Source of the DNA: an uncultured Acidobacteriota bacterium
GTDB taxonomy: Bacteria > Acidobacteriota > Thermoanaerobaculia > Thermoanaerobaculales > Sulfomarinibacteraceae
Assembly (NCBI GenBank): GCA_963704125.1
Contig: CAVPHA010000011.1
Location: 3,801-67,800, forward strand
Direction: 5' to 3'
DNA length: 64,000 nt
How positions within the stretch are numbered: position 1 is the stretch's first letter; each line of letters starts with the position of its first letter. A model generated the notes under the pieces. It was not told the origin of the DNA. It ran no database searches and worked only from the letters and a program-made list of their open reading frames with translations. Shown here one piece after another: positions 45,494 through 57,913 of the stretch. The position numbers and the translations under genes were made by a program.

Positions 45494-45588
45494 GAGGTCT
45501 CCTCGATGGAATCTAGCACACAGGCGCCCAAAGTCCCATGAGATGTGACGGTGGTGACTGTTTGGCAGTTGATTCACCCAATACGGGA

Positions 45589-45617
45589 TTGACACATCCA
45601 TCCTCGCGCAATACGTT
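45589..45617 (+). promoter_or_regulatory. sigma70-like promoter candidate (TTGACA-17 nt-TACGTT)
   Basis: Read directly. It lies in the intergenic region and faces the LuxR-family gene, about 235 nt upstream of its ATG. Confidence 0.3.
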
Positions 45618-45852
45618 GATCAAAGAGGTATCCCAATCCAAACGGCGCCGCGATGAAAACGCGGACGTCCGAACCGGCAAGGGGCCAAGCATCTCGTTAG
45701 AAGTGGGCGAGCTTCAAGGAGGGCCGGATGCTTGAGTGCGGCTATTTGTCGAAAAGTCTATGTTCCTCAAGGGGACCTGCGCCGATCGTGCGTTCGGTCC
45801 CAACGATAAGAAGAAGCCGTCGAATGTGCGGGCCGGTGAGAAGGGTACGGGG

Positions 45853-47160
45853 ATGACCCATCATCTCCGACCGGACGGCGTCGTCGAACGAATCTACGAC
45901 GCGGTTTCCAAGGTCGATATGTGGGCCGATGCGCTCAACGCGGCTGCGGAGTTCTGCGGGGCCGACGCCATGTTGTTGGTATACGGCAACCTGTCAGGAG
46001 GAGACCCCGTGGTCGTCGGGGCATCGGGATTCAAGACCGAGGTCTTGGACAGGTACGCAATGAACCACCTCAAGGACGACGAGCTGGTTAGGGAGTCCAT
46101 GTTGGGGCCGGTTGGAATCGTGATCTCGAGCGAGCACCGACGAAGAGGGTGGGATTTTCTCGACACGTCCATGTATCGCCGGCTGCTGTGGCCCTGCGGG
46201 CTCCGCTATTTGGCCGGAACGGCGGTCATCAACACGCCAAAGGTTTACGCTTCCCTGTGGATGAGTTGTTCGGAGGGAGCAGGGGATTGTTCCCCGGGCA
46301 GTCTCCAGAGGTTTTCCGAGCTCGTGCCCCACTTCGGCAGGGCGATGGCCATCCACCACCGGTTGCGTCTGGCGGAAATGCAGGCGGAGTTGGCGACCGG
46401 CGCCTTCGATCGCGTCTCGGTGGGCGTCGTGCTCCTCGGGGTGGATGGCGATCCCATTTTGGCGAATCGCGAGGCTGTGCGGATCGCCTTGCGGCGAGAC
46501 GGGCTCGTCTTTTGCGATCGGAGCCTCGCAGCCGAGCACCCAGGGGATTCGAAACGCCTGCGAAAGTTGATTCGGCAGGTTGGTCAATCAGCGTCACTGA
46601 CCGAGGATTCCACACACACGTGCGGTGGCGCGATGCGGATCACGCGATCATCGGGGCAATCCGACTACCACGTTGTGGTGATGCCTCTTCCCATGCGTTG
46701 TCAGCCCGGTGACGGCAGCGGGGCGGTGTCGGTGCTCTTTATCACCGACCCGGACAAGGCGAATGATGCGGTGAACTTTCTGTTCGGCGATCTCTATGGC
46801 CTCACCGATGCCGAGTCTCGTCTGGTGTGCGAGCTCCTCGAGGGTCGTGGCCTGACTGCTGCCGCCGAGCAGCTCGGTCTGTCGCGCAACACCGTTCACT
46901 CGCAGTTGTCGTCGGTCTTCCAGAAGACCGGCACTCGCCGTCAGGGCGAACTTCTTCGACTCCTCCTCGGAGGTGTCGCCCCGATCGAAGCTACCGGATG
47001 TCACGTCGGGATTCCACAAACCCATGCCGGGGCCCGGGGATCTGACTCACTAGGCTCACCCGTTTGGGTGATGCGCATCGGATTCGACGCTCCGAAGTTC
47101 AACCATAAGAGCAACATCATTGCTGGCCGACGGCCGATTGACATGGTGGTGGTCGGATGA
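45853..47160 (+). CDS. LuxR-family transcriptional regulator with a long non-receiver N-terminal domain
   Basis: C-terminal HTH: LTDAESRLVCELLEGRGLTAAAEQLGLSRNTVHSQLSSVFQKTGTRRQGELLRLLL. About 60 extra residues follow the HTH, which is unusual, so the native stop may be lost. The ORF is open from 45736; ATG 45853 has a GAAGGG RBS. Confidence 0.75.
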   Translation: MTHHLRPDGVVERIYDAVSKVDMWADALNAAAEFCGADAMLLVYGNLSGGDPVVVGASGFKTEVLDRYAMNHLKDDELVRESMLGPVGIVISSEHRRRGWDFLDTSMYRRLLWPCGLRYLAGTAVINTPKVYASLWMSCSEGAGDCSPGSLQRFSELVPHFGRAMAIHHRLRLAEMQAELATGAFDRVSVGVVLLGVDGDPILANREAVRIALRRDGLVFCDRSLAAEHPGDSKRLRKLIRQVGQSASLTEDSTHTCGGAMRITRSSGQSDYHVVVMPLPMRCQPGDGSGAVSVLFITDPDKANDAVNFLFGDLYGLTDAESRLVCELLEGRGLTAAAEQLGLSRNTVHSQLSSVFQKTGTRRQGELLRLLLGGVAPIEATGCHVGIPQTHAGARGSDSLGSPVWVMRIGFDAPKFNHKSNIIAGRRPIDMVVVG

Positions 47161-47172
47161 GAGGAGCGCGGC

Positions 47173-47420
47173 ATGACACCGACAATCGATGTCCGCACCC
47201 ACATCTAGGGAATGGTGAACCCCGACGGTCAGCTTGAAAAGAACCGGCCTTTGGCACTGGTGAAGGAAGCCATCGAAAACAAGGGGTTCATCGGCGTCAA
47301 GCTCTACAACTCCCTCGGATACCGACCGCTCGGCAACGCCGACACCGAACTCGCCCTGAAGCGGCGTCACATCGCTGTCCGCAACCAGAAGCTGCCCTAT
47401 CTCTTCGAGACGGGAGTGGT
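47173..47420 (+). pseudogene. amidohydrolase-like gene relic (in-frame TAG and internal deletion)
   Basis: MTPTIDVRTHI (metal-binding D.H.H-type start) is followed by TAG (47206-47208) and then, in the same frame, VNPDGQLEKNRPLALVKEAIENKGFIGVKLYNSLGYRP. Too little sequence separates the two blocks for an intact amidohydrolase. Confidence 0.4.
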
Positions 47421-47459
47421 TCGACCTCGACAACGGAGACCCGAACAAGGAAAGAGAAC

Positions 47460-47768
47460 ATGGAAGCCAAAGCTCTTTCACACTTTCATGGCCCCGGGAA
47501 CGATCGAAAGGAGCTCGCCTACAAGGTCGGGCTCTACACCGCCGCGGCGCCGACCTATTTCCCCGCGGTTGACGGCTACGTCGATGGGGGAGTCTACGCC
47601 AACAACCCGTCCATGTGCGCGCTCGCGCAGACCCAGGACCAGCGCTAAATACCTCACGCCCCGCCGAAGATCTCCGAAATCGTGCTGCTTTCCCTCGGCA
47701 CCGAACCAGCCTCTTCCACATTGAAAAAGACAGCCGATTGGATGAACACGTTTTGGATGACCGACTGA
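47460..47768 (+). pseudogene. patatin-like phospholipase gene relic (C-terminal part only, frameshifted)
   Basis: YTAAAPTYFPAVDGYVDGGVYANNPSMCALAQ (catalytic Asp DGG block), then in another frame ISEIVLLSLGTEP…TADWMNTFW. The N-terminal GxSxG half is absent. Confidence 0.55.
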
Positions 47769-47844
47769 TCGGCGGCGATCTGAAGCAGCGCAGTCTTACG
47801 GAGTAGGTGAGACTCCACGACGGTGCTGAAGGCGCTCATTCCCT

Positions 47845-48171
47845 CTAATTACCGACTGGGTTCCTCCAGTCGTTCGAGCCGCAATCGGGCCACCTCATCA
47901 TTCCAGGAGCGCAATCGGGTCCTGGCCCGCCACTTCCCGCTGCCGTGGACGTCCGATGCGCTGAAACGCACCTGCGCGGTACGCCGCCCCCCGGCGTAGA
48001 TCTCGGGAATGCGAGCGCGAGATCCGTCAGTACCCCACAGACCAGCCCGCTGCAGTCGCGGCCGAGCTCCTTGCGACCGGAGACTCCGTCGCCTCCCCAC
48101 CAATAGAGCGAACTTCCGACTTCACGTTGGGCGAGAAGACACATGGCGACTCGTGCGTTTTCGGTGTTCAT
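47845..48171 (-). CDS. NlpC/P60-like (C40) protein, short and possibly truncated
   Basis: SSLYWWGGDGVSGRKELGRDCSGLVCGVL (catalytic Cys context). No signal peptide, and the downstream His/polar half is not recognisable. Its start overlaps the stop of the upstream gene (ATGA at 48168-48171). Confidence 0.5.
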   Translation of the reverse strand: MNTENARVAMCLLAQREVGSSLYWWGGDGVSGRKELGRDCSGLVCGVLTDLALAFPRSTPGGGVPRRCVSAHRTSTAAGSGGPGPDCAPGMMRWPDCGSNDWRNPVGN

Positions 48172-49460
48172 TGGAATCCCCTCTCAGTTTGTTCCCAGTC
48201 TTGGCCTCCGGTGGAAGAACGTTCGTTGGATCGAAGAGAGTCTGTAGGAGGGACCATCATCCAGAAGAGGCAGTGAGAGAGACCCACACTCCTAGAGAGC
48301 CACTGAAATAGAGGATTTTCCGCGGGAATCGGTGATTTGACCTCGAAGGGCTTTCCCGCATCCTTGTGCTGGTCGAGAAGTAGCTGGAGATCCTCTTTGG
48401 GTAACCATGACCCACTGGCCGCCGCCGGGTAGGTCATGTGGATCGTGAACGGGTCGTTGCCGCGGGCGGTGAAGATCATCTCGAAGGTCGCCACCTCGGG
48501 GTTGCCGTGCTTGCCGTCACCGGAGATGACGTAGTGATCGGCGGTGATGATGCGGAAAAAGTCGGTGTCGACGTTGCGGTCGCTCCCGTGGTGGGGCATC
48601 TTCAGCAGATTGACGTGGAGCTTGCCGTCGACCAGGAGTCCGGCATCCCGGACCGCGGCGAGGATGTGGTCGCCGCGGGCGTCGCCGGTCAGCAGCATCG
48701 TCTTCCCCTCGGCCGAAGCCAGAATCACGAGACTTGCGAGGTTGTAGGCCGACCTGTCGAGCATCTCGGCCACGCCGGCTTCGCCCGCCGCGACCACCGC
48801 CAGACCCAGACGCTCGAGCTCGTTGTCCCATTTCTTCTGCAGGGCGTCGATTTGATCCTGGCGGGGACCGAGGATTCGGAACTCGAGGCCGTCGCCGAGA
48901 TCGACGGTGTCGGTGTCATCGCCGTTGGCGGCGATCAGACCGCCACCGGGCATGTTGACCGGCAGACCGAGCTTCTCGGCGTCCTTGCGGAGCTGTCGCC
49001 CCTGACGGACGCTCGCGACCACTGCCGCCGCCTCACCGCTCAGCCCGCCGACGCTCGGTGTGATCTCCTCCAGCGAGGCGGCGCCCACCTCGGCCATCCC
49101 GGATGAAAAGAACTCGGCGCTGTGGGCGCCGACCACATCGTCAAAGGCGTTGTGCCACAGGGTCTCGAACTCGTAGCGGAGAGGCTCGTGATCCTCGTGC
49201 GCCTCCACCAACTCCTTGGTCATGTCAAGAGCGCCGTTGATGTGATCGTCATCGATGTGGCTCACCATCAGCATCCGGATCGGCAGCGTCTCACCCGGTG
49301 TCAGATCATCACGGATGGCCTCGAGACGAGGCTTCAGGGTGGGGATCCAGACCTTGTTGGGCCCTCCGTCGATGACCACGAGCTTCGGGTCGGCCGGATC
49401 GCCATAGTGGAGCAGGAGGAAGTCGCCGTGCTTGGCCTGGAGCGCTTCCAATGTAAACAT
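48168..49460 (-). CDS. cytoplasmic MBL-fold (ComEC-like metallo-beta-lactamase superfamily) protein, 430 aa
   Basis: MFTLEALQAKHGDFLLLHYGDPADPKLVVIDGGP, MLMVSHIDDDHINGA, MLLTGDARGDHI and LLKMPHHGSDRN are MBL/ComEC-type metal motifs. No signal peptide. Confidence 0.75.
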   Translation of the reverse strand: MFTLEALQAKHGDFLLLHYGDPADPKLVVIDGGPNKVWIPTLKPRLEAIRDDLTPGETLPIRMLMVSHIDDDHINGALDMTKELVEAHEDHEPLRYEFETLWHNAFDDVVGAHSAEFFSSGMAEVGAASLEEITPSVGGLSGEAAAVVASVRQGRQLRKDAEKLGLPVNMPGGGLIAANGDDTDTVDLGDGLEFRILGPRQDQIDALQKKWDNELERLGLAVVAAGEAGVAEMLDRSAYNLASLVILASAEGKTMLLTGDARGDHILAAVRDAGLLVDGKLHVNLLKMPHHGSDRNVDTDFFRIITADHYVISGDGKHGNPEVATFEMIFTARGNDPFTIHMTYPAAASGSWLPKEDLQLLLDQHKDAGKPFEVKSPIPAENPLFQWLSRSVGLSHCLFWMMVPPTDSLRSNERSSTGGQDWEQTERGFQ

Positions 49461-49488
49461 GGTTTTTCCTTTCGCAGGTGGTCATCGG

Positions 49489-51368
49489 TCACACGGACTG
49501 CAGAGCTCGAAGGACATCGAGCATCCCGCTGCCCTGAAAAAAGCGTTCTCTGCCGAGGTCGGTGGCCGTTTCGCAGAGAATCCGTTTGATCTCGTTCGCC
49601 TCGCCGATGAACTCGCTGTGACGGGCCATCAACATGGCCGCGGCGCCGCTGACGTGCGGGGCGGCCATGCTGGTTCCGTCCTTTCGTCCTTTGGCCTCTC
49701 CCGGAATCGGTGCGGTGATCTTCTCCCCCGGCGCCACGAGATCGGGCTTGTCGCTCCCGTCCCCGGTGGGCCCGCGACTCGAAAAGTAGCTCACGCCGTA
49801 GGTGTGGGGCCGATTGCGGTGGGTGGCGCCGACCGTGATCACGCTCTCGGCGTTTCCCGGGATCGGTGACGCTCATGGCGTTGTAGCCCTCGAGGAAGCC
49901 TGTGTCGGTTCGGTATTTGACCGTGCCAAGGTTTCCGGCAGCTGCCACCACAACGACACCGTTGTTCACGACCCGCTCACATTCGTCGCAGACCGGAGTC
50001 CGACCGCAGGCGTAGTTGGTGACATCGTGTTTGATGGAAAGGCTGAGGTTGGCACCGTGGACCACGATGTAGTCGTGGTGAGCATTGAGATAGCGGATGA
50101 ACTGGAGAGCTGCGATGATGCTGAACTCGGTACCCTTTCCGTTGTCATCCAGAACCCGGAGGTCGTACAGCTTGAGGTCCGGACAGACACCTTGGAGAGG
50201 GGGTCCATCCTGACCGTCGGGCTTTTCCCAATCACCGGCGAGGATTCCGGCAACGTGGGTGCCATGGGTGTGTTGAGGCTCGTGGTAGTCGGGCTCGCTG
50301 TGTTCAACCTCGAGGAACGGCTCGAGGAGAACCCAGTCGACGTCCCGGCCGGTCTGGAGGCTTCGCTGGAGACTGTCGAGAAGATCCTCGACCCTGGTCC
50401 ACTGCGCCTCCCCGATGTCCGGGATCTTTTCCCGTAGTTTCTCTTTCGTGAGATTGTCGGGATTCAACAGATTGCGTATTCGGTTGAAGTCGTAGGTCTT
50501 GACCACTCGGGTTCGGTTGAGCCAGCGCGCGCCGTCGAGTTCGAAGGGATCGTCAAACAACGAGCCGTCCCTGTCCTTCGCTCGAAACGCGGGGTGCGTC
50601 GCATCGATTCCGCTGTCGATGACCGCCCAGGTCAGCTTGGCGCAACTGACCTTGAAGAGCAGCCGAGCCGCATCCGCCTTGATGGCAAGAGTCGACTTCT
50701 TGACCGCGGTGGTAGCCTCACGATTACGGCCGACGAGCCACACCAGCTGCTCCTCGTCCTTTTCCGGAACCTTGAGATCCGCAATCAGGCGTTTGATCTG
50801 GTCGACGGTCTCGGCCGGTGTCGACGGCTCAGCTCTCGCTCCCTTTTTCTTGGTTCCCCTGGTCATCCCGGCGATCGCTCCGACGATTCGGGCCATCCAG
50901 AGGAGATCCGGGGACAGTGGGAGCTTGTCCTCGCTTTCCTCGTTTGCGAAGACCTCGAGCGCCTCTGCCAACATCTGTTTTGCGTCTGAATCTTTGTCGA
51001 ACCGGCGGAGGTATGTCCCCGTTCCCTTCCACACGTATCGCTGCCACCAAGGCGTCATGGGAAGCACAACTCGAATCAGTTCCTTGAAATAGAGACGTGC
51101 GACCACAGAACCTTGGGCAAAAGCGATTTCCGGGATCCTCCTTTCGTTTGTGCTTCTTCGGCTCGAGGCTGAGTCGATTGCGGATCGCATTCGCAAGTTG
51201 GCCGGCGCTCATATCCCGATGAGGTGTCAGCAGCAAATCGACAGGTTCGTTCGGTGTTTTCGCATACTCGAGCCATACGTCCGGCAGAATCGGGGAGTCC
51301 TGCGTGTAGCGTCGATCGTTCTCGGTTCCGAAAATCAATCCCTCGAAATTCTCCGGCGTATCGGCCAT
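49489..51368 (-). pseudogene. cytoplasmic S8 (subtilisin-family) serine peptidase with a 250-aa N-terminal region of unknown function; two frameshifts
   Basis: Asp AVIDSGIDATHPAF, His HGTHVAGILAG and Ser GTSMAAPHVSGAAAM. GGAGGA RBS before ATG 51368. No signal peptide. Frame changes lie near 51140 and 49850. Confidence 0.8.
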
Positions 51369-51640
51369 CAGTGCTTCCTCCATTCAGGTCGTCGGATGCG
51401 GTTAGGGTTGAAACGTGACGAAAAACTCAATGGCCGCAGCAGTATCGAGACCACCCAGAGGCACCAGGATGGCGCGAAGCGCCGGCTGCTGGGGATTTCG
51501 ACGGGCAGGATGAGCGTGGGTTCTTCCTCGGCGGTGGCATCGCGAAATTCGCTGGGCGTTTCACCGGGTTGTTGAAAATCCGTGGTCTCATTGTAATGCT
51601 GAACGGCAAAAAGAGAATCCTGCCAGAGCCGGGCATCCAC
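51368..51640 (-). CDS. small ORF (90 aa) translationally coupled to the S8 peptidase gene
   Basis: GTG start at 51640. Its TGA stop overlaps the ATG of the S8 gene (TGATG at 51370-51366). No recognisable family. The overlapping alternative ORF 51427-51681 makes the frame uncertain. Confidence 0.3.
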   Translation of the reverse strand: MDARLWQDSLFAVQHYNETTDFQQPGETPSEFRDATAEEEPTLILPVEIPSSRRFAPSWCLWVVSILLRPLSFSSRFNPNRIRRPEWRKH

Positions 51641-51693
51641 AACTGCCCCGTGGTCGGAGCGCGACCACGGGGCTTTGACATCCGGCGTCGAAC

Positions 51694-54393
51694 CTAGGGC
51701 GTTTCAGGCGTTAGTGCGAAGGCGTACACATGGCTGCTGTCCAGGCTCGAGATTCGATGTCCCCAACCACGAGTCGCTTTTGCGTAGACGTACAGAACCT
51801 GAGCGAACGCGGCCTCGTCGGGACAGGTCTCGAGCAGCTCCGCGACCGTAAAGGTCCGCGTGAAATTGCCGAAACCGTCACCGACATACGGCCCGCTCGC
51901 GCCAGGAATACCGGCCGTCGGCGCGGCGACCTCGGCGTTGGTCACCGGCGACAGGGTCACCGTGTTGGGGCCGCGCGCGATGCGGAAGCTGAAGATCGCC
52001 CGGTTGTCGGGATGAGTCGCGTGAAAGGCCACATCGACGGGATCCGGGCCCAGGGGATCGTAACGCAGGAAACCGCAGTCTCCGGCGCCGACGGTGCCGA
52101 TCATCGGCTGATCGATCACGGCCCCCGTCGGCCGGTTGTCGATGTGCAGACTGAACTCGAAGCCGCCGCCGAGGACGCTCGCTCCCGGTGCGAAAGCCGT
52201 GAGGATGGTGCCGTCTGCCGCCTGGCTGGTGGGTACGACAAACTGGAAACTACCGCCCCCCGGCGAGACCTGGACACCGGCCTGGTCATAGATCTCCAGC
52301 CGGATCAGGTAGCTTCCCGGGGAGAGGCTCTCGCCGACGGTGTTGAGCAAGCCTCGATAAATGTCACCGACCCAGCCGGTTGTGGGCCAGCTGACGGTCT
52401 CACCCGGGGCCAGGGGCGGCACCAACGAGGGCAGCTCGGTCTCGTGCGGCTGGAATCGATAGAGCTTCTTGCCGGCGATGTCGTGCGGCCCGAGTTCGAG
52501 GGTTGGGAAGACCGGTGGATTCCCCGGCGCCTCGAACTGATAGTGGACCGATATGGTCTGTGAAAAGTCCGTCCAGGTCGGCACGGACTCGTGCCGGTAC
52601 TGGAATCGGTAGTAGTAGAGCTGCGCCGTCGGGATGACGTTGGCTCGGCCGAGCCGGAAGCCCAAATACCCGCCGAACGGAGCATCGATCATGGAGCGGC
52701 CGCCGTCGTTGTAGTCGGTCAGGCCGGTTGGTTTGATGCGGTAGAGCGGCGTGCCTCCAACCCCGTACGGCATGATCCAGGTGCCGGTGGCATCAACCCC
52801 CGGCTGTTCCGTGAAGCAGATATTGTCGACGACGAGCTCCTGACCGCCGAGAGCGAAAGAGTGCACCTCGCCGGTGAGCATCAAAGTTCCCTGATCGTCG
52901 CCAAACCCGCTGGTGACCGTGGCCAGAGCGCCTCCGATCATCGTATTGTGGATCTCGGCCATGTTGCCGAAGTTCTGGAAGTCGCCGTTGACCTCGAGGT
53001 TGAGGTTGCCGCCGTACTCACCAAATCTGAGGTGAACGACGTTTGGTGTCGCTGGGAACCCTACATTGACATTGACGTTGTTGGTCGCCAGCTCCTGACC
53101 GGAGCCTCCCGCCATGCCGGTATTGCCGATCGAAGCGTGGCCGCCGCTCGTCCAATTGCTGTTCGACCACTGGAACGACCCGATCGTCATGGTCGCGCCG
53201 GAGTCCGTGAACACGTCCCCGACGTTGTAGCTGGTGCCGAGCGCCGGGCTTTCGAAGTCGATGCAGGTCGGCCCGAGGCCGGTGATCGGCGCGCAGGTCG
53301 ATGTGTAGCTCTTCGCACACCGTCGGTCGGTCAAGGTCACCGACACGCAGTCCGGGGGCGGTGTACCCCGCGGGAGTGCAAACCAGAGGCTGCCGAGATT
53401 GTCGGCTGTGCCCAAGGCGCAGAAACCAAAGAGACGATGACCGTCACCGTCGTGGATGTCGACCCAGGTTCTGGAGGAGTTGGCGTTGAGCCCGCATGGC
53501 GGCAGATCCGGCGCGGCGGCGAACAGCGAATCCGGGTAGGCCGCCCGGTTCGTGACGGAGATGCTGTATCTCGTGAAAGCCAGACCTCCGGTCTCATCGT
53601 CTTCCGATCCCGTGATCTGGATCTGTGGGTCGGGAAGACCTGGGGGACAGATGATCCCCCAACCGAGAATCGCCTCGTTGACGAATCGGCTGACGATCCC
53701 CTCTCTGGATCTGACGATGTACCGGACCAGCACGGCCTCATCTCCGGCGGTGGCCGGGATCTTGAGCACGGCCCTCTCACCCGGGCCGAGAGTCTCCGGA
53801 TCGGAGCCCTGCCACCCGCGCCGCATCCGGCGGACGAGGTTGTCGACCTCATCCCAGTTGAGACGCTCGAGCTCCACCTGTTCGGGCAGGGTCACCCATT
53901 CCCGTTGAACCTGGACGCGTCCGGCCTCGAGCTCCCGGGGCATCTGGACGATGTCCCAGATCACCCCGTCACGGGCTTCCCAAACCTGCCAGGGGAGTGG
54001 GACCTCGTTTGCCGGTCTGCCGTCGATCGACCAGAAGCCGCGGGCCGTGATGGGGCCCTGGCAGGTCAGCCGAACGCCGAAATGCTCGGTGCGGCCGGGT
54101 TCGATCGGATCCTCTCGGTTCTGCCAGGTGATGGTCACACCGGGGCCGAAGGACGTGCGTGGACTGATCTTGGGCGGACCGCCCCAACCGGGATAGAAAC
54201 CACGAATGCACTCGCGGTCGATTTCCCCGATCAGAACCAACTCGAAATCGTTGTATGGACGCTGGTCGGTGTTTCGGACGTCGAAGTTGCTCAACGAGCC
54301 GACGACCTCCTGTGCGAACGCCGGGAGCGCCCCGCACACGAGAATCAGAACGGCCGTCACTGCCACGAATCTCGATCTTGATTGAGCCATCAT
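51694..54393 (-). CDS. large exported protein of unknown function (about 900 aa)
   Basis: Purine-rich GAAGGGAAGGGG stretch (RBS-like) immediately upstream, ATG ATG at 54393. Signal peptide MMAQSRSRFVAVTAVLILVCGALPAFA. Uninterrupted ORF with non-shadow composition. No family recognised. Confidence 0.7.
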   Translation of the reverse strand: MMAQSRSRFVAVTAVLILVCGALPAFAQEVVGSLSNFDVRNTDQRPYNDFELVLIGEIDRECIRGFYPGWGGPPKISPRTSFGPGVTITWQNREDPIEPGRTEHFGVRLTCQGPITARGFWSIDGRPANEVPLPWQVWEARDGVIWDIVQMPRELEAGRVQVQREWVTLPEQVELERLNWDEVDNLVRRMRRGWQGSDPETLGPGERAVLKIPATAGDEAVLVRYIVRSREGIVSRFVNEAILGWGIICPPGLPDPQIQITGSEDDETGGLAFTRYSISVTNRAAYPDSLFAAAPDLPPCGLNANSSRTWVDIHDGDGHRLFGFCALGTADNLGSLWFALPRGTPPPDCVSVTLTDRRCAKSYTSTCAPITGLGPTCIDFESPALGTSYNVGDVFTDSGATMTIGSFQWSNSNWTSGGHASIGNTGMAGGSGQELATNNVNVNVGFPATPNVVHLRFGEYGGNLNLEVNGDFQNFGNMAEIHNTMIGGALATVTSGFGDDQGTLMLTGEVHSFALGGQELVVDNICFTEQPGVDATGTWIMPYGVGGTPLYRIKPTGLTDYNDGGRSMIDAPFGGYLGFRLGRANVIPTAQLYYYRFQYRHESVPTWTDFSQTISVHYQFEAPGNPPVFPTLELGPHDIAGKKLYRFQPHETELPSLVPPLAPGETVSWPTTGWVGDIYRGLLNTVGESLSPGSYLIRLEIYDQAGVQVSPGGGSFQFVVPTSQAADGTILTAFAPGASVLGGGFEFSLHIDNRPTGAVIDQPMIGTVGAGDCGFLRYDPLGPDPVDVAFHATHPDNRAIFSFRIARGPNTVTLSPVTNAEVAAPTAGIPGASGPYVGDGFGNFTRTFTVAELLETCPDEAAFAQVLYVYAKATRGWGHRISSLDSSHVYAFALTPETP

Positions 54394-54572
54394 GAACCCC
54401 TTCCCTTCGGTGGAGAGACAATGTCGTTGTTTGCAGGTATCGGGATCGCCGGGTCGATTTACATCACCCATTTGGGTGATGCAGCCGCCGGAGACGAGAC
54501 CGACCCTGTTCGTTGGCATCTAACTCCGGAACGATGAATGCCGAAAAACCGGCACACCCAAGGAGGGCTGCG

Positions 54573-55103
54573 ATGGCTGATGAACGAGTGCGCGGCGCGA
54601 AGGTCAGGGGCGGGGGATCAATCCCAAAAAACACGCACACCCCAGCAATCTTCAATGTGATCTGGGATTCCGATGGGTATTTCCGGCCGACGATCGACAA
54701 TGGTGTGCTCACCATCCCAAGACCGAGGCGCCGCGGCAGATACCAGATCCGGGTGGCGGTTCGCTGGATGAACCCTTGGGGTCTGCCCGGCGGCGCGCGA
54801 CCGTCTTATGACGACTACTCCAAAATGAACTACTACACCTGCATCACCGTCAACGACAGCCTCCTCGGAAATGAAGCTAGGGCAACCGCCGCCCCGGTTC
54901 TGGCTGCGACGGGAACGACCCAGTACTTCGCCGTCGATGAAAACCTGGGTCTCGGTGACTCCGTTGGGGTCAGACTGTGGCAGTCCGTTGGCGACGACGT
55001 CATGGCTAATGTATTTCTTGAAATACGACGTCTCGGTCCGCGGGCGTCCGCGTTGACGACATCTGCGACCGGGTCTTCGGATTCGGCATCCGACACCGGT
55101 TGA
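54573..55103 (+). CDS. hypothetical protein (176 aa), possibly a C1q/TNF-like jelly-roll
   Basis: AGGAGG 6 nt before ATG 54573. Beta-rich body (…AIFNVIWDSDGYFRPTIDNGVLTIPRPRRRGRYQIRVAVRW…YYTCITVND…GVRLWQ…FLEIRRLG). The fold assignment is only an impression. Confidence 0.45.
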   Translation: MADERVRGAKVRGGGSIPKNTHTPAIFNVIWDSDGYFRPTIDNGVLTIPRPRRRGRYQIRVAVRWMNPWGLPGGARPSYDDYSKMNYYTCITVNDSLLGNEARATAAPVLAATGTTQYFAVDENLGLGDSVGVRLWQSVGDDVMANVFLEIRRLGPRASALTTSATGSSDSASDTG

Positions 55104-55323
55104 ACGAGCATCGATAATCGGTGAATTGCACTTTTGACCGACCTGCCCGACGACTCGACGCCGTGAGGGGTCTATACCGAGAGCGCAGACTTGAGTCATT
55201 CGATAGCCAATTGCCGACTGACTCATGGTTCTTTGATTCCGCCTGATCTCGCCACCCGGTGCCAATTGCGACGTGATATCGTATCGCCAGAAGCTTCGCG
55301 CGCGACAAAAAGGGGGAGAGACC

Positions 55324-55779
55324 ATGGTTGCTGCAGAATCGGGTGGCGGTGTTTCGATGAGGACCCCGGTCCACCTGTGGATCATCGGCGTGCTGGCGCT
55401 GCTGTGGAACGCGATCGGGGCTTTCGATTACTTGGCCACGCAGTTCAAGCTCGAGTTCTACATGGGGAAATTCGAACCGGAGATGCTTGATTACGTCTAC
55501 AACGGCATCCCCGCATGGGCGATCGCCGGTTGGGCGATCGCCGTTTGGTTCGCGTTGGCGGGCTCCATCGGGCTGCTGTTGCGCAAGCGGTGTTCGATGT
55601 GGCTCTTCGGCATTTCCATCGTGGGGATGGTTTTCAGCACCGTTCACGGGTTCTTCCTGTCCAACGGTCTCGAGATCATGGGCAACAGTTACCTGTACAT
55701 GTCGGCCCTCGTCTGGATGATCGCCTTCGGGCTGTTCTTCTATGCCCGCGCCATGTGCAAGCAGGGTGTTCTCACCTGA
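55324..55779 (+). CDS. 4-TM membrane protein of unknown function
   Basis: GGGGGAG RBS and ATG at 55324. Four hydrophobic helices (HLWIIGVLALLWNAIGAF…, WAIAGWAIAVWFALAGSIGLLL, WLFGISIVGMVFSTVHGFF, LYMSALVWMIAFGLFFY). Confidence 0.65.
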   Translation: MVAAESGGGVSMRTPVHLWIIGVLALLWNAIGAFDYLATQFKLEFYMGKFEPEMLDYVYNGIPAWAIAGWAIAVWFALAGSIGLLLRKRCSMWLFGISIVGMVFSTVHGFFLSNGLEIMGNSYLYMSALVWMIAFGLFFYARAMCKQGVLT

Positions 55780-55852
55780 GGTCCGGCATGGGCAGCTTGT
55801 TCCGACCGCCGACGTTGACGCCGCGGAGCAGGGCGATGTGCGAACCGGTCAT
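55772..55852 (-). pseudogene. 5' fragment (26 codons) of a DUF1697-family gene
   Basis: MTGSHIALLRGVNVGGRNKLPMPDLR-stop is the characteristic DUF1697 N-terminus as I recall it. Its ATG overlaps the stop of the upstream gene (ATGA at 55849-55852). The rest of the gene is replaced by the convergent 55324-55779 gene. Confidence 0.5.
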
Positions 55853-57913
55853 TCCGGTGTTTCTTCGTCGGCCGCGCCGGCACGACGGTCGCGCAACCGG
55901 ATCACGACCGAGTACACCAGGAAGACCGCGGTGAGCACCCACGCGACGACTCGGCCGGCGGTTCCGGTAAAAAGAAAGATGAAGTCGAAACCCCAGGTCC
56001 AGGTGAAGACGCCGACCCACATGGTCAGGAGCACGACGGGCAACAGTCGTGCGACCGGAAAACCCCATGAGCAACCCGACGAGGGCGCCGATAAAGGCGC
56101 CCGTGAACGGCAACGGAAGCCAGATGAAGATCACGAGGCCAAGGATGCCGTAGGTTTGCAGACGCTGATTCTGCGATCGGGCGCGCTGATCGGCGCCGCG
56201 GAAGAACGAGGCGAGCCATCGTGGCGGGTCCACGCGCTCGGTCGCCATCCGGAAGATCGGAAGCGCGAGCAGGAGAAACCCGGTGTTGAGCAGGAGGATC
56301 ACCATGGCGGTGAGTAGATTTCCCAAACCGAGCTCGAGACCGGTGAGGATCCCCGCCATCCGGCCGCCGACATAGGCCGCGCCGAGAACAGCCATGACCT
56401 TGGCGAACAGGGCCGTGTCGGTGGCCCAGAGCACACCCAACGCCGTCAGATTTCCGACGGTCACCAGCAACCCCGCCGCCAGCAGGATTCGAGTGATCTT
56501 TCGATCCGGCGCCGAGGCGGTGGGCACGGGGCTACTCCGGGTACGATCTGCTTCGACCTCGGTCGAGGCTCGGTTCGATTTGCTGATGGCCTGGCGAGCC
56601 TCCCCTCCTTCGACCAGCCGATCGTGGCAGCTCGGGCCTCCGAAAACCGCGACCGGCTCGAAGCCGTCGCCGGCAAGGGCGAGGTCGAGGAGATCTTCGG
56701 CCGAGAGCGTCGGCCGGCCGGACCGCTCCTGGAGGGGGATTTCGATCGGGCCGAGTCCGTCGAAGGCGCGGTAGACGACCTCGGTGCAGACCAACCTGTC
56801 AGAACGGAAGAAGTCGAAGTCGAAGTTGTAGAGCTTGCCCTCGTGTTTTGCGGCGCGAGCAAGACCCTGCGCAAGCTGAGCTCGATTGAGCTGCGGCCGG
56901 ATCACCGCCACCGCGTCGACCGCCAGGGTCTGCTCGAGGGGCCGGAAGAGAACCCCATCCTTGAGCGCCTCGAGGACCCGCCGATCGCCGCTCCATCGTC
57001 GTGCTCTGTCCTCGTCAAGCTCGACCCCCAGATGCCGGCGGTCGTCCTCGGAGCCGATGTAGAGCGCGGCGTGCGGCCAGAAACCGGGGAGAAAGAGGTT
57101 GGTCAGCGCCCGTTCATGACGACAGATCAGAACGTCTCCAGGTTGCAGCAGGTTGTCAATCTGGTGGCGGAGATCGTCATCGACCCGGCAGGGCGACCAC
57201 TGGTCCCGCAGCTCCGAGGCCAATCGCCCGCCGGTTTCGAGGGCCGCGAAAACCGTCTGCTGGCGGGCCGAGGCGCCGCGGCGCCGGAAGGTATGAACCA
57301 GATAGTTGATCAGGAGCTTGAGGTACCTCCGCCGACTGGGCTCGAGCACCTTTTCCCGCTCTGAGAGATGGACCACGAACTCGCCGACGATGGGGTCGTC
57401 GGCCATGGCGTTCAACAGCCGCCGTTGGCCCCGGGCGAGGCGCATGGCCTTCTCCATCTGCCGTGCCTTGGCGGGGTCGGTGAAGGACTCGAAGATCTCG
57501 GTGTACTGCTTTCGGGGAATTCGATGGAGTGCGGATCCCTCGTTGAGCTTGCGTTGGGTCAGCGATTCGCGAGCGACAGTCTCGAGGAGCAATCGGTCGA
57601 GGCGGACGACCAGGCAGGCTGCGGTGTAGCCGAGAACGAAGCAGCGCCATTCCTCGATGTCGAAGATGCCCTCGACTCGTCCACCCACCGGGGCGGAAAC
57701 CTCACCGATGACCTCCCAGAGCTCGGACCGGATGGTCAGAAAACGGGCGAACCAGGACAGCAGTTCGGCTTCTTCCGCCGGGCGAAAATGACCTCGGGCG
57801 ACTGCAGCCGCAATGATCTCCTCGGAAGGAGTCGCGTGGTCGAGCTCATCGACTGCTTCGGCAAGCGCGGTGACCGCGCGGCGGCAACCGGTGAGATACT
57901 CCTCGAACGGCAC
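55849..57913 (-). pseudogene. YiiX-like permuted papain/NlpC-P60 superfamily domain fused in frame to a small-multidrug-export-like membrane domain; one frameshift near 56040
   Basis: QPGDVLICRHERALTNLFLPGFWPHAALYIG … DRLVCTEVVYRAF (Cys/His permuted hydrolase pattern). Then the TM region …IFIWLPLPFTGAFIGALVGLLMGF, whose last helices (…VVLLTMWVGVFTWTWGFDFIFLFTG…) are in another frame. Confidence 0.6.

Follow-up and report, generated by a model that had tools for sequence, protein, structure and literature searches.

The minus strand of a 64,000-nt stretch of DNA from an uncultured Acidobacteriota bacterium of the Sulfomarinibacteraceae (assembly GCA_963704125.1, contig CAVPHA010000011.1, positions 3,801 to 67,800; the whole stretch is called the window here) carries two adjacent genes, one encoding a subtilisin-like serine protease of family S8 and the other a metallo-β-lactamase (MBL)-fold protein (Table 1). 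Judged by its sequence, this S8-MBL locus is very probably a homologue of the protease-gated MBL pro-nuclease modules of bacterial immunity, and the pair belongs to these recently recognised protease-activated nuclease modules rather than to a new kind. As far as sequence comparison with related loci can tell, the conserved core is a two-gene cassette; the small open reading frame (ORF), the NlpC/P60 sequence and the overlapping start and stop codons that an earlier note on this DNA had joined to it in a four-gene operon are artefacts or relics.

Protease gating of such nucleases has been described in two recent studies. The MBL nucleases HamM (of Hachiman) and Avs1a (of AVAST) are gated proenzymes in which partner trypsin-like proteases cut two loops, freeing an indiscriminate DNase (Tuck et al., Science 2025, PMC12799240). 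The same gating was proposed in that work for Lamassu and DRT variants, caspase-nuclease ('canu') systems were described, and nuclease homologues were found to radiate with other protease families. The available text of Evans et al. (2025; bioRxiv 10.1101/2025.11.14.688446) reaches the same mechanism, distinguishes three clades of protease-associated MBL proteins (trypsin-like, caspase-like and S8 subtilisin-like), speaks of 'additional, distinct sensor associations' in the caspase-like and S8 clades, and raises stress-response roles for protease-effector modules. Between Tuck et al. and that text, mapped cleavage sites are given as I118/I218 in HamM, I134/I234 in EpiAvs1a and I133/I233 in VcMBL. 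Of the three clades, the pair in the window fits the S8-associated one, 'Clade 3' of Evans et al. as the available text presents it, with an MBL effector beside an S8 protease in a conserved and widespread pairing; in the same text Clade 3 is placed on the tree only, with no architecture, experiment or N-terminal domain of ~245 aa, and the two are compared here by description.

The MBL protein is linked to these effectors by profile, motif and structural comparisons. Its ORF was not recognised by Pfam; in PADLOC it matched LmuA (1.4e-46), Avs1a (8.8e-27), the reverse transcriptase (RT)-associated MBL, RTasMBL (4e-24), and PDC-M48B, and the NCBIfam Avs1a model matched it at 1.5e-36 with 126 bits, below the equivalog cut-off of 420. 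Residues H69, D71, D73, H74, D261, H283, H291 and H292, invariant in 119 homologues, are all present in the window. Profile alignment (hhalign) with the ABC-three-component (ABC3C)-linked MBL of a Providencia plasmid gave a probability of 99.6 (E 6e-25) and was collinear through both loop regions. The best solved-structure match of an AlphaFold2 (AF2) model of a homologue (pLDDT 87.7, pTM 0.89) was the MBL nuclease domain of ComEC, 9ic4 (Foldseek E 6e-13, TM 0.69 on the target). The two share the H-x-[HD]-x-D-H and PHHGS-type motifs; ComEC, however, sits in the membrane as a competence protein and lacks the two insertions, whereas the MBL protein described here is soluble, ~120 residues longer and paired with a protease.

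Those insertions are the predicted gating loops. The model is confident apart from residues 126-141 and 223-229 (pLDDT <50), and both segments fall in variable, Ala/Ser/Gly/Pro-rich, indel-prone alignment columns. Loop 1 is bordered by the invariant WHNSFDD and SVxQGRxLR blocks, the same place as in the trypsin-clade MBL, and loop 2 falls after the invariant W212 and before D236 of the 'D-x-S-x-x-N-L-x-S' block. On the basis of the model, the MBL protein is predicted to carry two disordered insertions relative to ComEC at the gating-loop positions, and these are predicted to correspond to the mapped cleavage sites of the trypsin-linked relatives.

The S8 gene starts at ATG 51368-51366, which is preceded by GGAGGAAG and was fixed by alignment to L007, a short-read contig with an intact S8 allele that is 97% identical at the protein level. 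It stops at TGA 49491-49489, and as assembled is spread across three reading frames. Pfam Peptidase_S8 matches both catalytic pieces (2.8e-16 and 5.7e-19) and the PADLOC 'subtilase' model also matches, so that the search of defence catalogues suggested in the earlier note returned matches for both members of the pair. Sequence searches gave thousands of full-length S8 homologues of 615-670 aa, and identity to full-length relatives, again in the thousands, is 50-58% for both S8 and MBL. The catalytic columns D252, H372, N480 and S567 are invariant in 119 S8 homologues and are present in the window. By inspection, neither S8 nor MBL has an N-terminal hydrophobic signal; the absence of signal peptides from three enzymes claimed in the earlier note thus holds for these two, and the third, NlpC/P60, is not an enzyme gene. 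The S8 model (pLDDT 82, pTM 0.89) comprises, in order, an alpha/beta module (residues ~1-95), a helical bundle (~95-196), a short beta hairpin with a linker, and the catalytic domain, in which a long insertion separates Asp from His. The linker is disordered in the model, yet conserved in sequence (N216, R217, S226, K231, D233, A234, F239).

The first two of these parts make up most of an N-terminal region that the earlier note could not assign, putting it at about 250 aa. That description is borne out: the region, of ~245 aa, gave zero matches in Pfam and among PDB sequences. It carries the highly conserved motifs RRFTQDSPxLPDVW, LPxTxWW and NR...S...KADAA..F, and a profile built on it found 1,104 cluster representatives (clusters at 50% identity), 377 of them with E<=1e-30. 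The domain stands at the protein N-terminus, most of the carriers listed are 600-790 aa long, the size of the S8 fusion, and it precedes the protease domain in every listed protein long enough to contain one. No other architecture was seen among the profile matches, the shorter of which can be read as truncated pieces of that protein, with the sole exception of a fusion with the MBL: a metagenomic representative of 1,107 aa (P0340) joins an MBL, the N-domain (residues 450-696) and an S8 catalytic domain in one natural polypeptide. The N-domain is modelled as the alpha/beta module followed by the helical bundle, and the top structural matches of the full-length S8 model are unprocessed pro-subtilisins (Pro-Tk-SP, 3afg; pro-subtilisin E, 3whi), a resemblance which hints that part of the region acts like a pro-domain. 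It differs from these pro-forms in having no sequence similarity to I9 propeptides, in being three times longer and in possessing the extra helical bundle. That an N-terminal extension can keep a subtilase latent is an established principle, and the intracellular subtilisin proteases of Bacillus are comparable. The N-domain probably keeps the protease latent, senses a trigger, or does both.

A second S8-MBL subfamily was noticed on a plasmid of Sinorhizobium meliloti RRI128 (L091 5905-9350) and on other Rhizobium plasmids. Its two genes overlap by 4 nt and its MBL is ~28% identical; its S8 protein aligns only from residue ~209 and must therefore have a different N-terminal region. These alignments suggest that the S8 branch holds several types of N-domain.

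The S8-MBL pairing is strongly conserved. In a scan of one genome per species, the MBL is encoded by at least 570 genomes. Of the best 80 genome loci, 79 have a full-length S8 gene, N-terminal region included, immediately upstream of the MBL on the same strand, and the one exception has an S8-family gene downstream. The earlier note had named a lack of conserved pairing as grounds for giving up its reading, and conservation is what was found. Most of the 79 loci have a spacer of 5-60 nt, and inspection of six relatives' neighbourhoods showed S8 followed by MBL with spacers of 10-30 nt and otherwise unrelated flanks; the 28 nt that the earlier note counted between the two genes on the minus strand are confirmed in the sequence. 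No third conserved gene accompanies the pair among the 80 loci. Its hosts belong to at least 12 phyla, among them Acidobacteriota, Gemmatimonadota, Methylomirabilota/Rokubacteria, Planctomycetota, Verrucomicrobiota, Actinomycetota, Nitrospirota, Pseudomonadota, Thermodesulfobacteriota, Myxococcota and Hydrogenedentota. Patristic distances of S8 and MBL are correlated (Mantel r=0.73, a value reached by 0/999 permutations), and phylum labels switch 21-24 times on trees with 12 phyla, where 11 switches would suffice; together, the correlated trees and the excess of switches indicate joint horizontal transfer.

The pair is also found on mobile elements and beside defence genes. Conjugative plasmids account for 58 of the 78 plasmids with MBL relatives. 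On pCMU01 of Methylorubrum extorquens CM4 the pair follows a Pycsar system (PycC at 2e-220, E2, PycTIR), with VapC, an integrase, ImmA/IrrE and IS21 also nearby; on a plasmid of Rhizobium phaseoli R630 its neighbours are FRG, SIR2 and NERD-kinase genes; on a plasmid of S. meliloti M270 a patatin-S8-MBL cluster is set between insertion sequence (IS) elements; and at one chromosomal locus (L004) it adjoins PemK/MazE, PIN and Mrr+AAA_22 genes. No real relative of the MBL was found among 50,697 phage records. The suggestion of the earlier note that a defence or conflict module is encoded here is supported for the S8-MBL pair, by its PADLOC matches, near-invariant pairing and plasmid contexts and by the 2025 papers, and not for the small ORF and NlpC/P60, which are not members.

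Among the characterised systems, HamMAB, Avs1 (Avs1a-Avs1b) and VcAvs2-MBL share with the pair a homologous MBL, two disordered insertions at matching sites and a neighbouring protease that co-evolves with it. Their protease, however, is trypsin-like whereas here it is S8, their gene order is MBL-protease whereas here it is protease-MBL, and the pair lacks a Hachiman, STAND, Lamassu or RT sensor as well as a conserved Ile in the loops. Canu (CanABC) resembles it in being a small stand-alone system with the nuclease gene downstream of a protease that is not trypsin-like; it differs in its caspase-family protease, its Ig-like or TPR partners and its CanB subunit, where the pair has a single S8 protein with its own N-domain and no third conserved gene. 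Membership in three named systems was considered and rejected because the partner genes are missing. For AVAST type 1, the Avs1a match falls short of the cut-off as given above and a STAND gene is missing from the window and from related loci; for Lamassu, despite the LmuA match, neither the window nor any of the 80 loci has an LmuB- or LmuC-like gene beside the pair; and for IetAS, the IetS matches are marginal (E 1e-3 to 1e-8, confined to the catalytic core) and there is no IetA.

In some lineages phospholipase genes adjoin the pair. A patatin-like phospholipase gene lies upstream of S8 on the same strand in 9 of the 80 loci, across several phyla (L012, L013, L020, L037, L039, L042, L046, L047, L077); it directly adjoins S8 wherever the S8 start was called, with a 4-nt stop/start overlap in three loci. 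A patatin gene also lies upstream of S8 on an S. meliloti plasmid (L089 6038-7081) and one gene further upstream on a Paroceanicella plasmid (L093 6668-7831). On a plasmid of Miltoncostaea oceani a gene for a Tle1-like phospholipase (PF09994, 9e-61; L092 10895-12202) begins 8 nt downstream of the MBL. The patatin may be a second effector of the same protease.

The mechanism that best accommodates these observations would work as follows. The cassette would be a self-contained two-gene unit of a cytoplasmic S8 protease and a ComEC-like MBL DNase, the latter kept inactive by a pair of disordered insertions that cover its active site. By analogy with HamMAB, Avs1/Avs2-MBL and CanABC, the protease would be switched on by a signal of infection or stress and would cut both MBL loops; once freed, the nuclease would degrade DNA, and phage spread would be halted by abortive infection. 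What the sequences show is homology, the conserved pairing, co-evolution, intact catalytic motifs, loop positions and mobile or defence-type contexts; loop cleavage, DNase activity, a trigger and an anti-phage phenotype would be added to them by analogy. That the pair works in defence through a latent subtilase cutting the two gating loops of a pro-nuclease we regard as reasonably likely. A more specific version is put forward tentatively, as a possibility to which we give somewhat less than even chances: the pair could be a minimal autonomous abortive-infection system in which the N-domain is both sensor and latch, release or autoprocessing of S8 is followed by double cleavage of the MBL in a two-step cascade, and the protease in some lineages also licenses phospholipases, whether an upstream patatin or a downstream Tle1-like protein.

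Several observations weigh against a gated defence nuclease. The alignment columns of the MBL loops hold no single conserved residue or P1 position, and the S8 cut sites are not predictable because of it. The second-best fold matches of the MBL are phosphocholine esterases, Pce included, so a substrate other than DNA is conceivable. Conservation of the N-domain is unusually high for a phage sensor and the domain has no recognisable sensor fold. The window's own flanks hold a gene for a 941-aa exported protein, one for a LuxR-like regulator and gene relics, and no defence genes; and among the three nearest genes on each side of 28 chromosomal loci, in a tally made without a control, most are permeases, TonB/ExbB, response regulators and sigma factors, and the few defence-type neighbours are a ThsB-like TIR, a DpdF/PsyrT-like helicase, a PD-T4-6-like kinase and antitoxins. 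Neither Tuck et al. (PMC12799240) nor the available text of Evans et al. (10.1101/2025.11.14.688446) contains an experiment on an S8-linked MBL. Finally, the frameshifts, if real, would make the copy in the window a dead one.

This last point is the substance of one rival explanation, namely that the window holds a pair of pseudogenes in true decay within an eroding accessory region, with at least six indels inactivating both genes. The two frameshifts that the earlier note placed in S8 are confirmed against the intact L007 allele and against short-read metagenome contigs, and that note overlooked the indels at the 3' end of the MBL gene; relative to close relatives, six indels fall in 3.1 kb, and true relics lie adjacent, in the form of the NlpC/P60 fragment, which has a stop in the sister contig, and a patatin fragment. 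Small indels are, however, pervasive in this assembly. Against L003, a near-identical contig from the same metagenome assembly as a contig assigned to a Microflora Danica (MFD) metagenome-assembled genome (MAG), the window shows 51 of them in 11 kb (~4-5/kb; window positions 45500-56500), several inside otherwise 100% identical stretches; this comparison was used in place of the indel rate over the adjacent 12.7 kb from short-read contigs, which was too noisy, as contigs of other organisms pile onto conserved genes. We take the Microflora Danica assemblies behind L003 to be long-read based. Proteins of L003 and of L001, a more distant relative, map to the window in two or three frames for Sm_multidrug_ex, the APH kinase, acyl-CoA dehydrogenase and pirin, which are split in the same manner as the pair. 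With the indels skipped, 55 synonymous and 20 non-synonymous changes separate the S8 gene from that of L007 (dN/dS 0.10) and the gene contains no in-frame stop, and one of its two indels is in a homopolymer context (GGGAAAC). Because indels are pervasive in the assembly and the S8 dN/dS is 0.10, the S8 and MBL frameshifts are likely to be assembly errors; the copy is probably intact in the organism, its description as decaying in the earlier note is doubtful, and a true pseudogene pair seems unlikely. With 51 indels in 11 kb, frameshifts anywhere in the window are therefore suspect.

Elsewhere in the window, a 713-aa 'fusion' ORF (55772-57913) joins a YiiX-like part to an Sm_multidrug_ex membrane domain and contains indels at 56431 and 56058. 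In L003, otherwise 100% identical there, Sm_multidrug_ex is a separate 194-aa gene, the difference being one 2-nt and one 1-nt indel, and the fusion may be an indel artefact.

Identity between the window and L003 is also mosaic. The flanks are 94-100% identical (100% over 54,600-56,400), whereas inside the cassette (48200-51400) S8 is 62-87% and MBL 73-91% identical; the S8 of the window is 97% identical to that of L007, whose upstream flank differs. This pattern suggests allelic exchange of the cassette between strains, as is typical of immune genes, and it could also be produced by a chimeric consensus of co-assembled strains.

A second rival explanation retains an intact pair and denies it an immune role: the MBL would be a stress- or starvation-triggered hydrolase of self-DNA or of phosphodiesters that its dedicated protease matures, or the protease and a phosphoesterase would act on the envelope or on lipid head groups. 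The mostly housekeeping-type chromosomal neighbours, the high conservation of the N-domain across phyla and the Pce match can all be read this way, as can the recurrent phospholipase partners (patatin, Tle1-like) and the stress-response roles raised in the available text of Evans et al. Set against this are the closest relatives of known function, which are anti-phage pro-nucleases, the patchy, transfer-shaped distribution with carriage on plasmids, and the defence-island contexts on those plasmids; an envelope substrate is unlikely because both proteins are cytoplasmic. Overall we think such a role improbable, and continue to favour the protease-gated defence nuclease.

The four-gene, translationally coupled operon of small ORF, S8, MBL and NlpC/P60 proposed in the earlier note can be set aside as highly improbable, since neither the small ORF nor NlpC/P60 occurs in any of the 80 related loci and the two overlaps on which it leaned, TGATG at 51370-51366 and ATGA at 48171-48168, are literally present in the sequence but neither is a gene junction. 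At the upstream end, homology in L007 and in X1, X3 and X4, short-read metagenome contigs from three independent marine-sediment runs, ends exactly upstream of the S8 ATG at 51368, and in L001 just 33 nt separate the upstream gene from S8; for these reasons TGATG joins no genes. The small ORF is thus unconserved; it also has no match in Pfam, NCBIfam or PADLOC, overlaps a hairpin with an 11-bp stem and, as weak evidence, has a GC content at third codon positions (GC3) of 0.64 against 0.79-0.84 in adjacent genes, all of which is consistent with its being, most likely, a non-coding spacer. At the downstream end, the true MBL stop is TAG 48294-48292, giving '...KSSISVAL*' in the corrected frame (L003 counterpart 'EKSISVVL*'), and relatives are 388-389 aa long compared with 430 aa for the assembled ORF, which continues to 48168 owing to the 3' indels; the ATGA overlap, formed by this frameshifted tail, is an artefact because the true stop lies ~120 nt before the next ATG. 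NlpC/P60 itself reaches E 0.011 and 16.2 bits in Pfam against a gathering score of 23, covers positions 4-35 of 105 in the profile (the region of the Cys motif) and loses its frame after ~60 aa, and the syntenic copy in L003 is disrupted by an in-frame stop ('GRGCSGLIC*'); by sequence it is a relic common to the window and L003 and not an enzyme gene.

The patatin and amidohydrolase relics cited in the earlier note as signs of defence do not serve as such: the patatin match is sub-threshold and the amidohydrolase could not be confirmed. A derivation of the patatin fragment from the patatins associated with the pair was rejected, as tblastn of ten upstream patatins found no similarity in the window. 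A hairpin separates the gene for the 941-aa exported protein from the S8 unit; it has no T-run and hence went unscored in the terminator scan, and no sigma-70 promoter or terminator at the locus rose above chance. The ~310-nt spacer upstream of S8 is 99% identical in L003 and absent from L001 and from the upstream flank of L007; Rfam found no RNA element in it, and no direct or inverted repeats of note bound the pair in the window.

Table 1. Coordinates in the window of the S8-MBL pair, its indels and adjacent features (L007, intact S8 allele; X1, X3 and X4, short-read contigs)
Feature	Position	Strand	Remarks
S8 subtilisin-like serine protease gene	49489..51368	minus	~625 aa with two indels read through
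S8 N-terminal domain	50640..51368	minus	~245 aa, without known family
S8 catalytic codons	Asp 50617-50615, His 50257-50255, Ser 49671-49669	minus	
S8 frameshift 1	51133..51137	minus	window 2 nt short vs L007, X3, X4
S8 frameshift 2	49856..49862	minus	1 extra nt in CCCGGGAAAC; its removal restores canonical PGNAESVITVGATH motif
S8-MBL spacer	49461..49488	minus	28 nt, AAGGA ribosome-binding site
MBL-fold, ComEC-like putative pro-nuclease gene	48292..49460	minus	~388 aa; start ATG 49460
MBL SHIDDDH motif	49262-49242	minus	LLTGDARGD and PHHGS motifs intact
Predicted gating loop 1 of MBL	49020..49127	minus	~residues 112-147; Ala/Ser/Gly/Pro-rich, variable
Predicted gating loop 2 of MBL	48765..48806	minus	~residues 218-231
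Three MBL 3'-end indels	48321..48415	minus	+2 at 48321, -1 at 48398, +1 at 48415 (vs X1, X3); ORF ~42 codons longer
'Small ORF'	51368..51640	minus	90 aa, GTG start; most likely not a gene
NlpC/P60 N-terminal relic	47900..48171	minus	outside the module
Patatin fragment	47460-47648		sub-threshold, E 2.4e-4
GC-rich hairpin	51646..51672	minus	11-bp stem, 5-nt loop (CCCCGTGGTCG / CGACCACGGGG); directly after stop of 941-aa exported-protein gene

In summary, the work of 2025 established protease-licensed nucleases as a recurrent effector logic of bacterial immunity, parallel to the caspase-activated DNase of eukaryotes, and the experiments in Tuck et al. and in the available text of Evans et al. concern the trypsin- and caspase-linked versions. 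The S8-linked branch is large, with the MBL in at least 570 species genomes, ~1,100 clusters of the N-domain and at least 12 phyla. Cultivable Methylorubrum, Sinorhizobium and Rhizobium also have the pair on conjugative plasmids. As to the window, whose assembly is rich in small indels, the practical lesson is not to take its frameshifts, codon overlaps and gene fusions as biology. In the S8 branch two genes alone, one of them encoding an uncharacterised N-terminal domain, appear to make up the working unit, which makes the branch a simple setting in which to study the triggering of such proteases. If the cascade with the N-domain as sensor and latch is true, bacterial protease-gated immunity would gain a third protease class of distinct mechanism, along with multi-effector licensing, in a system common in soil and sediment phyla that experiments have barely touched.

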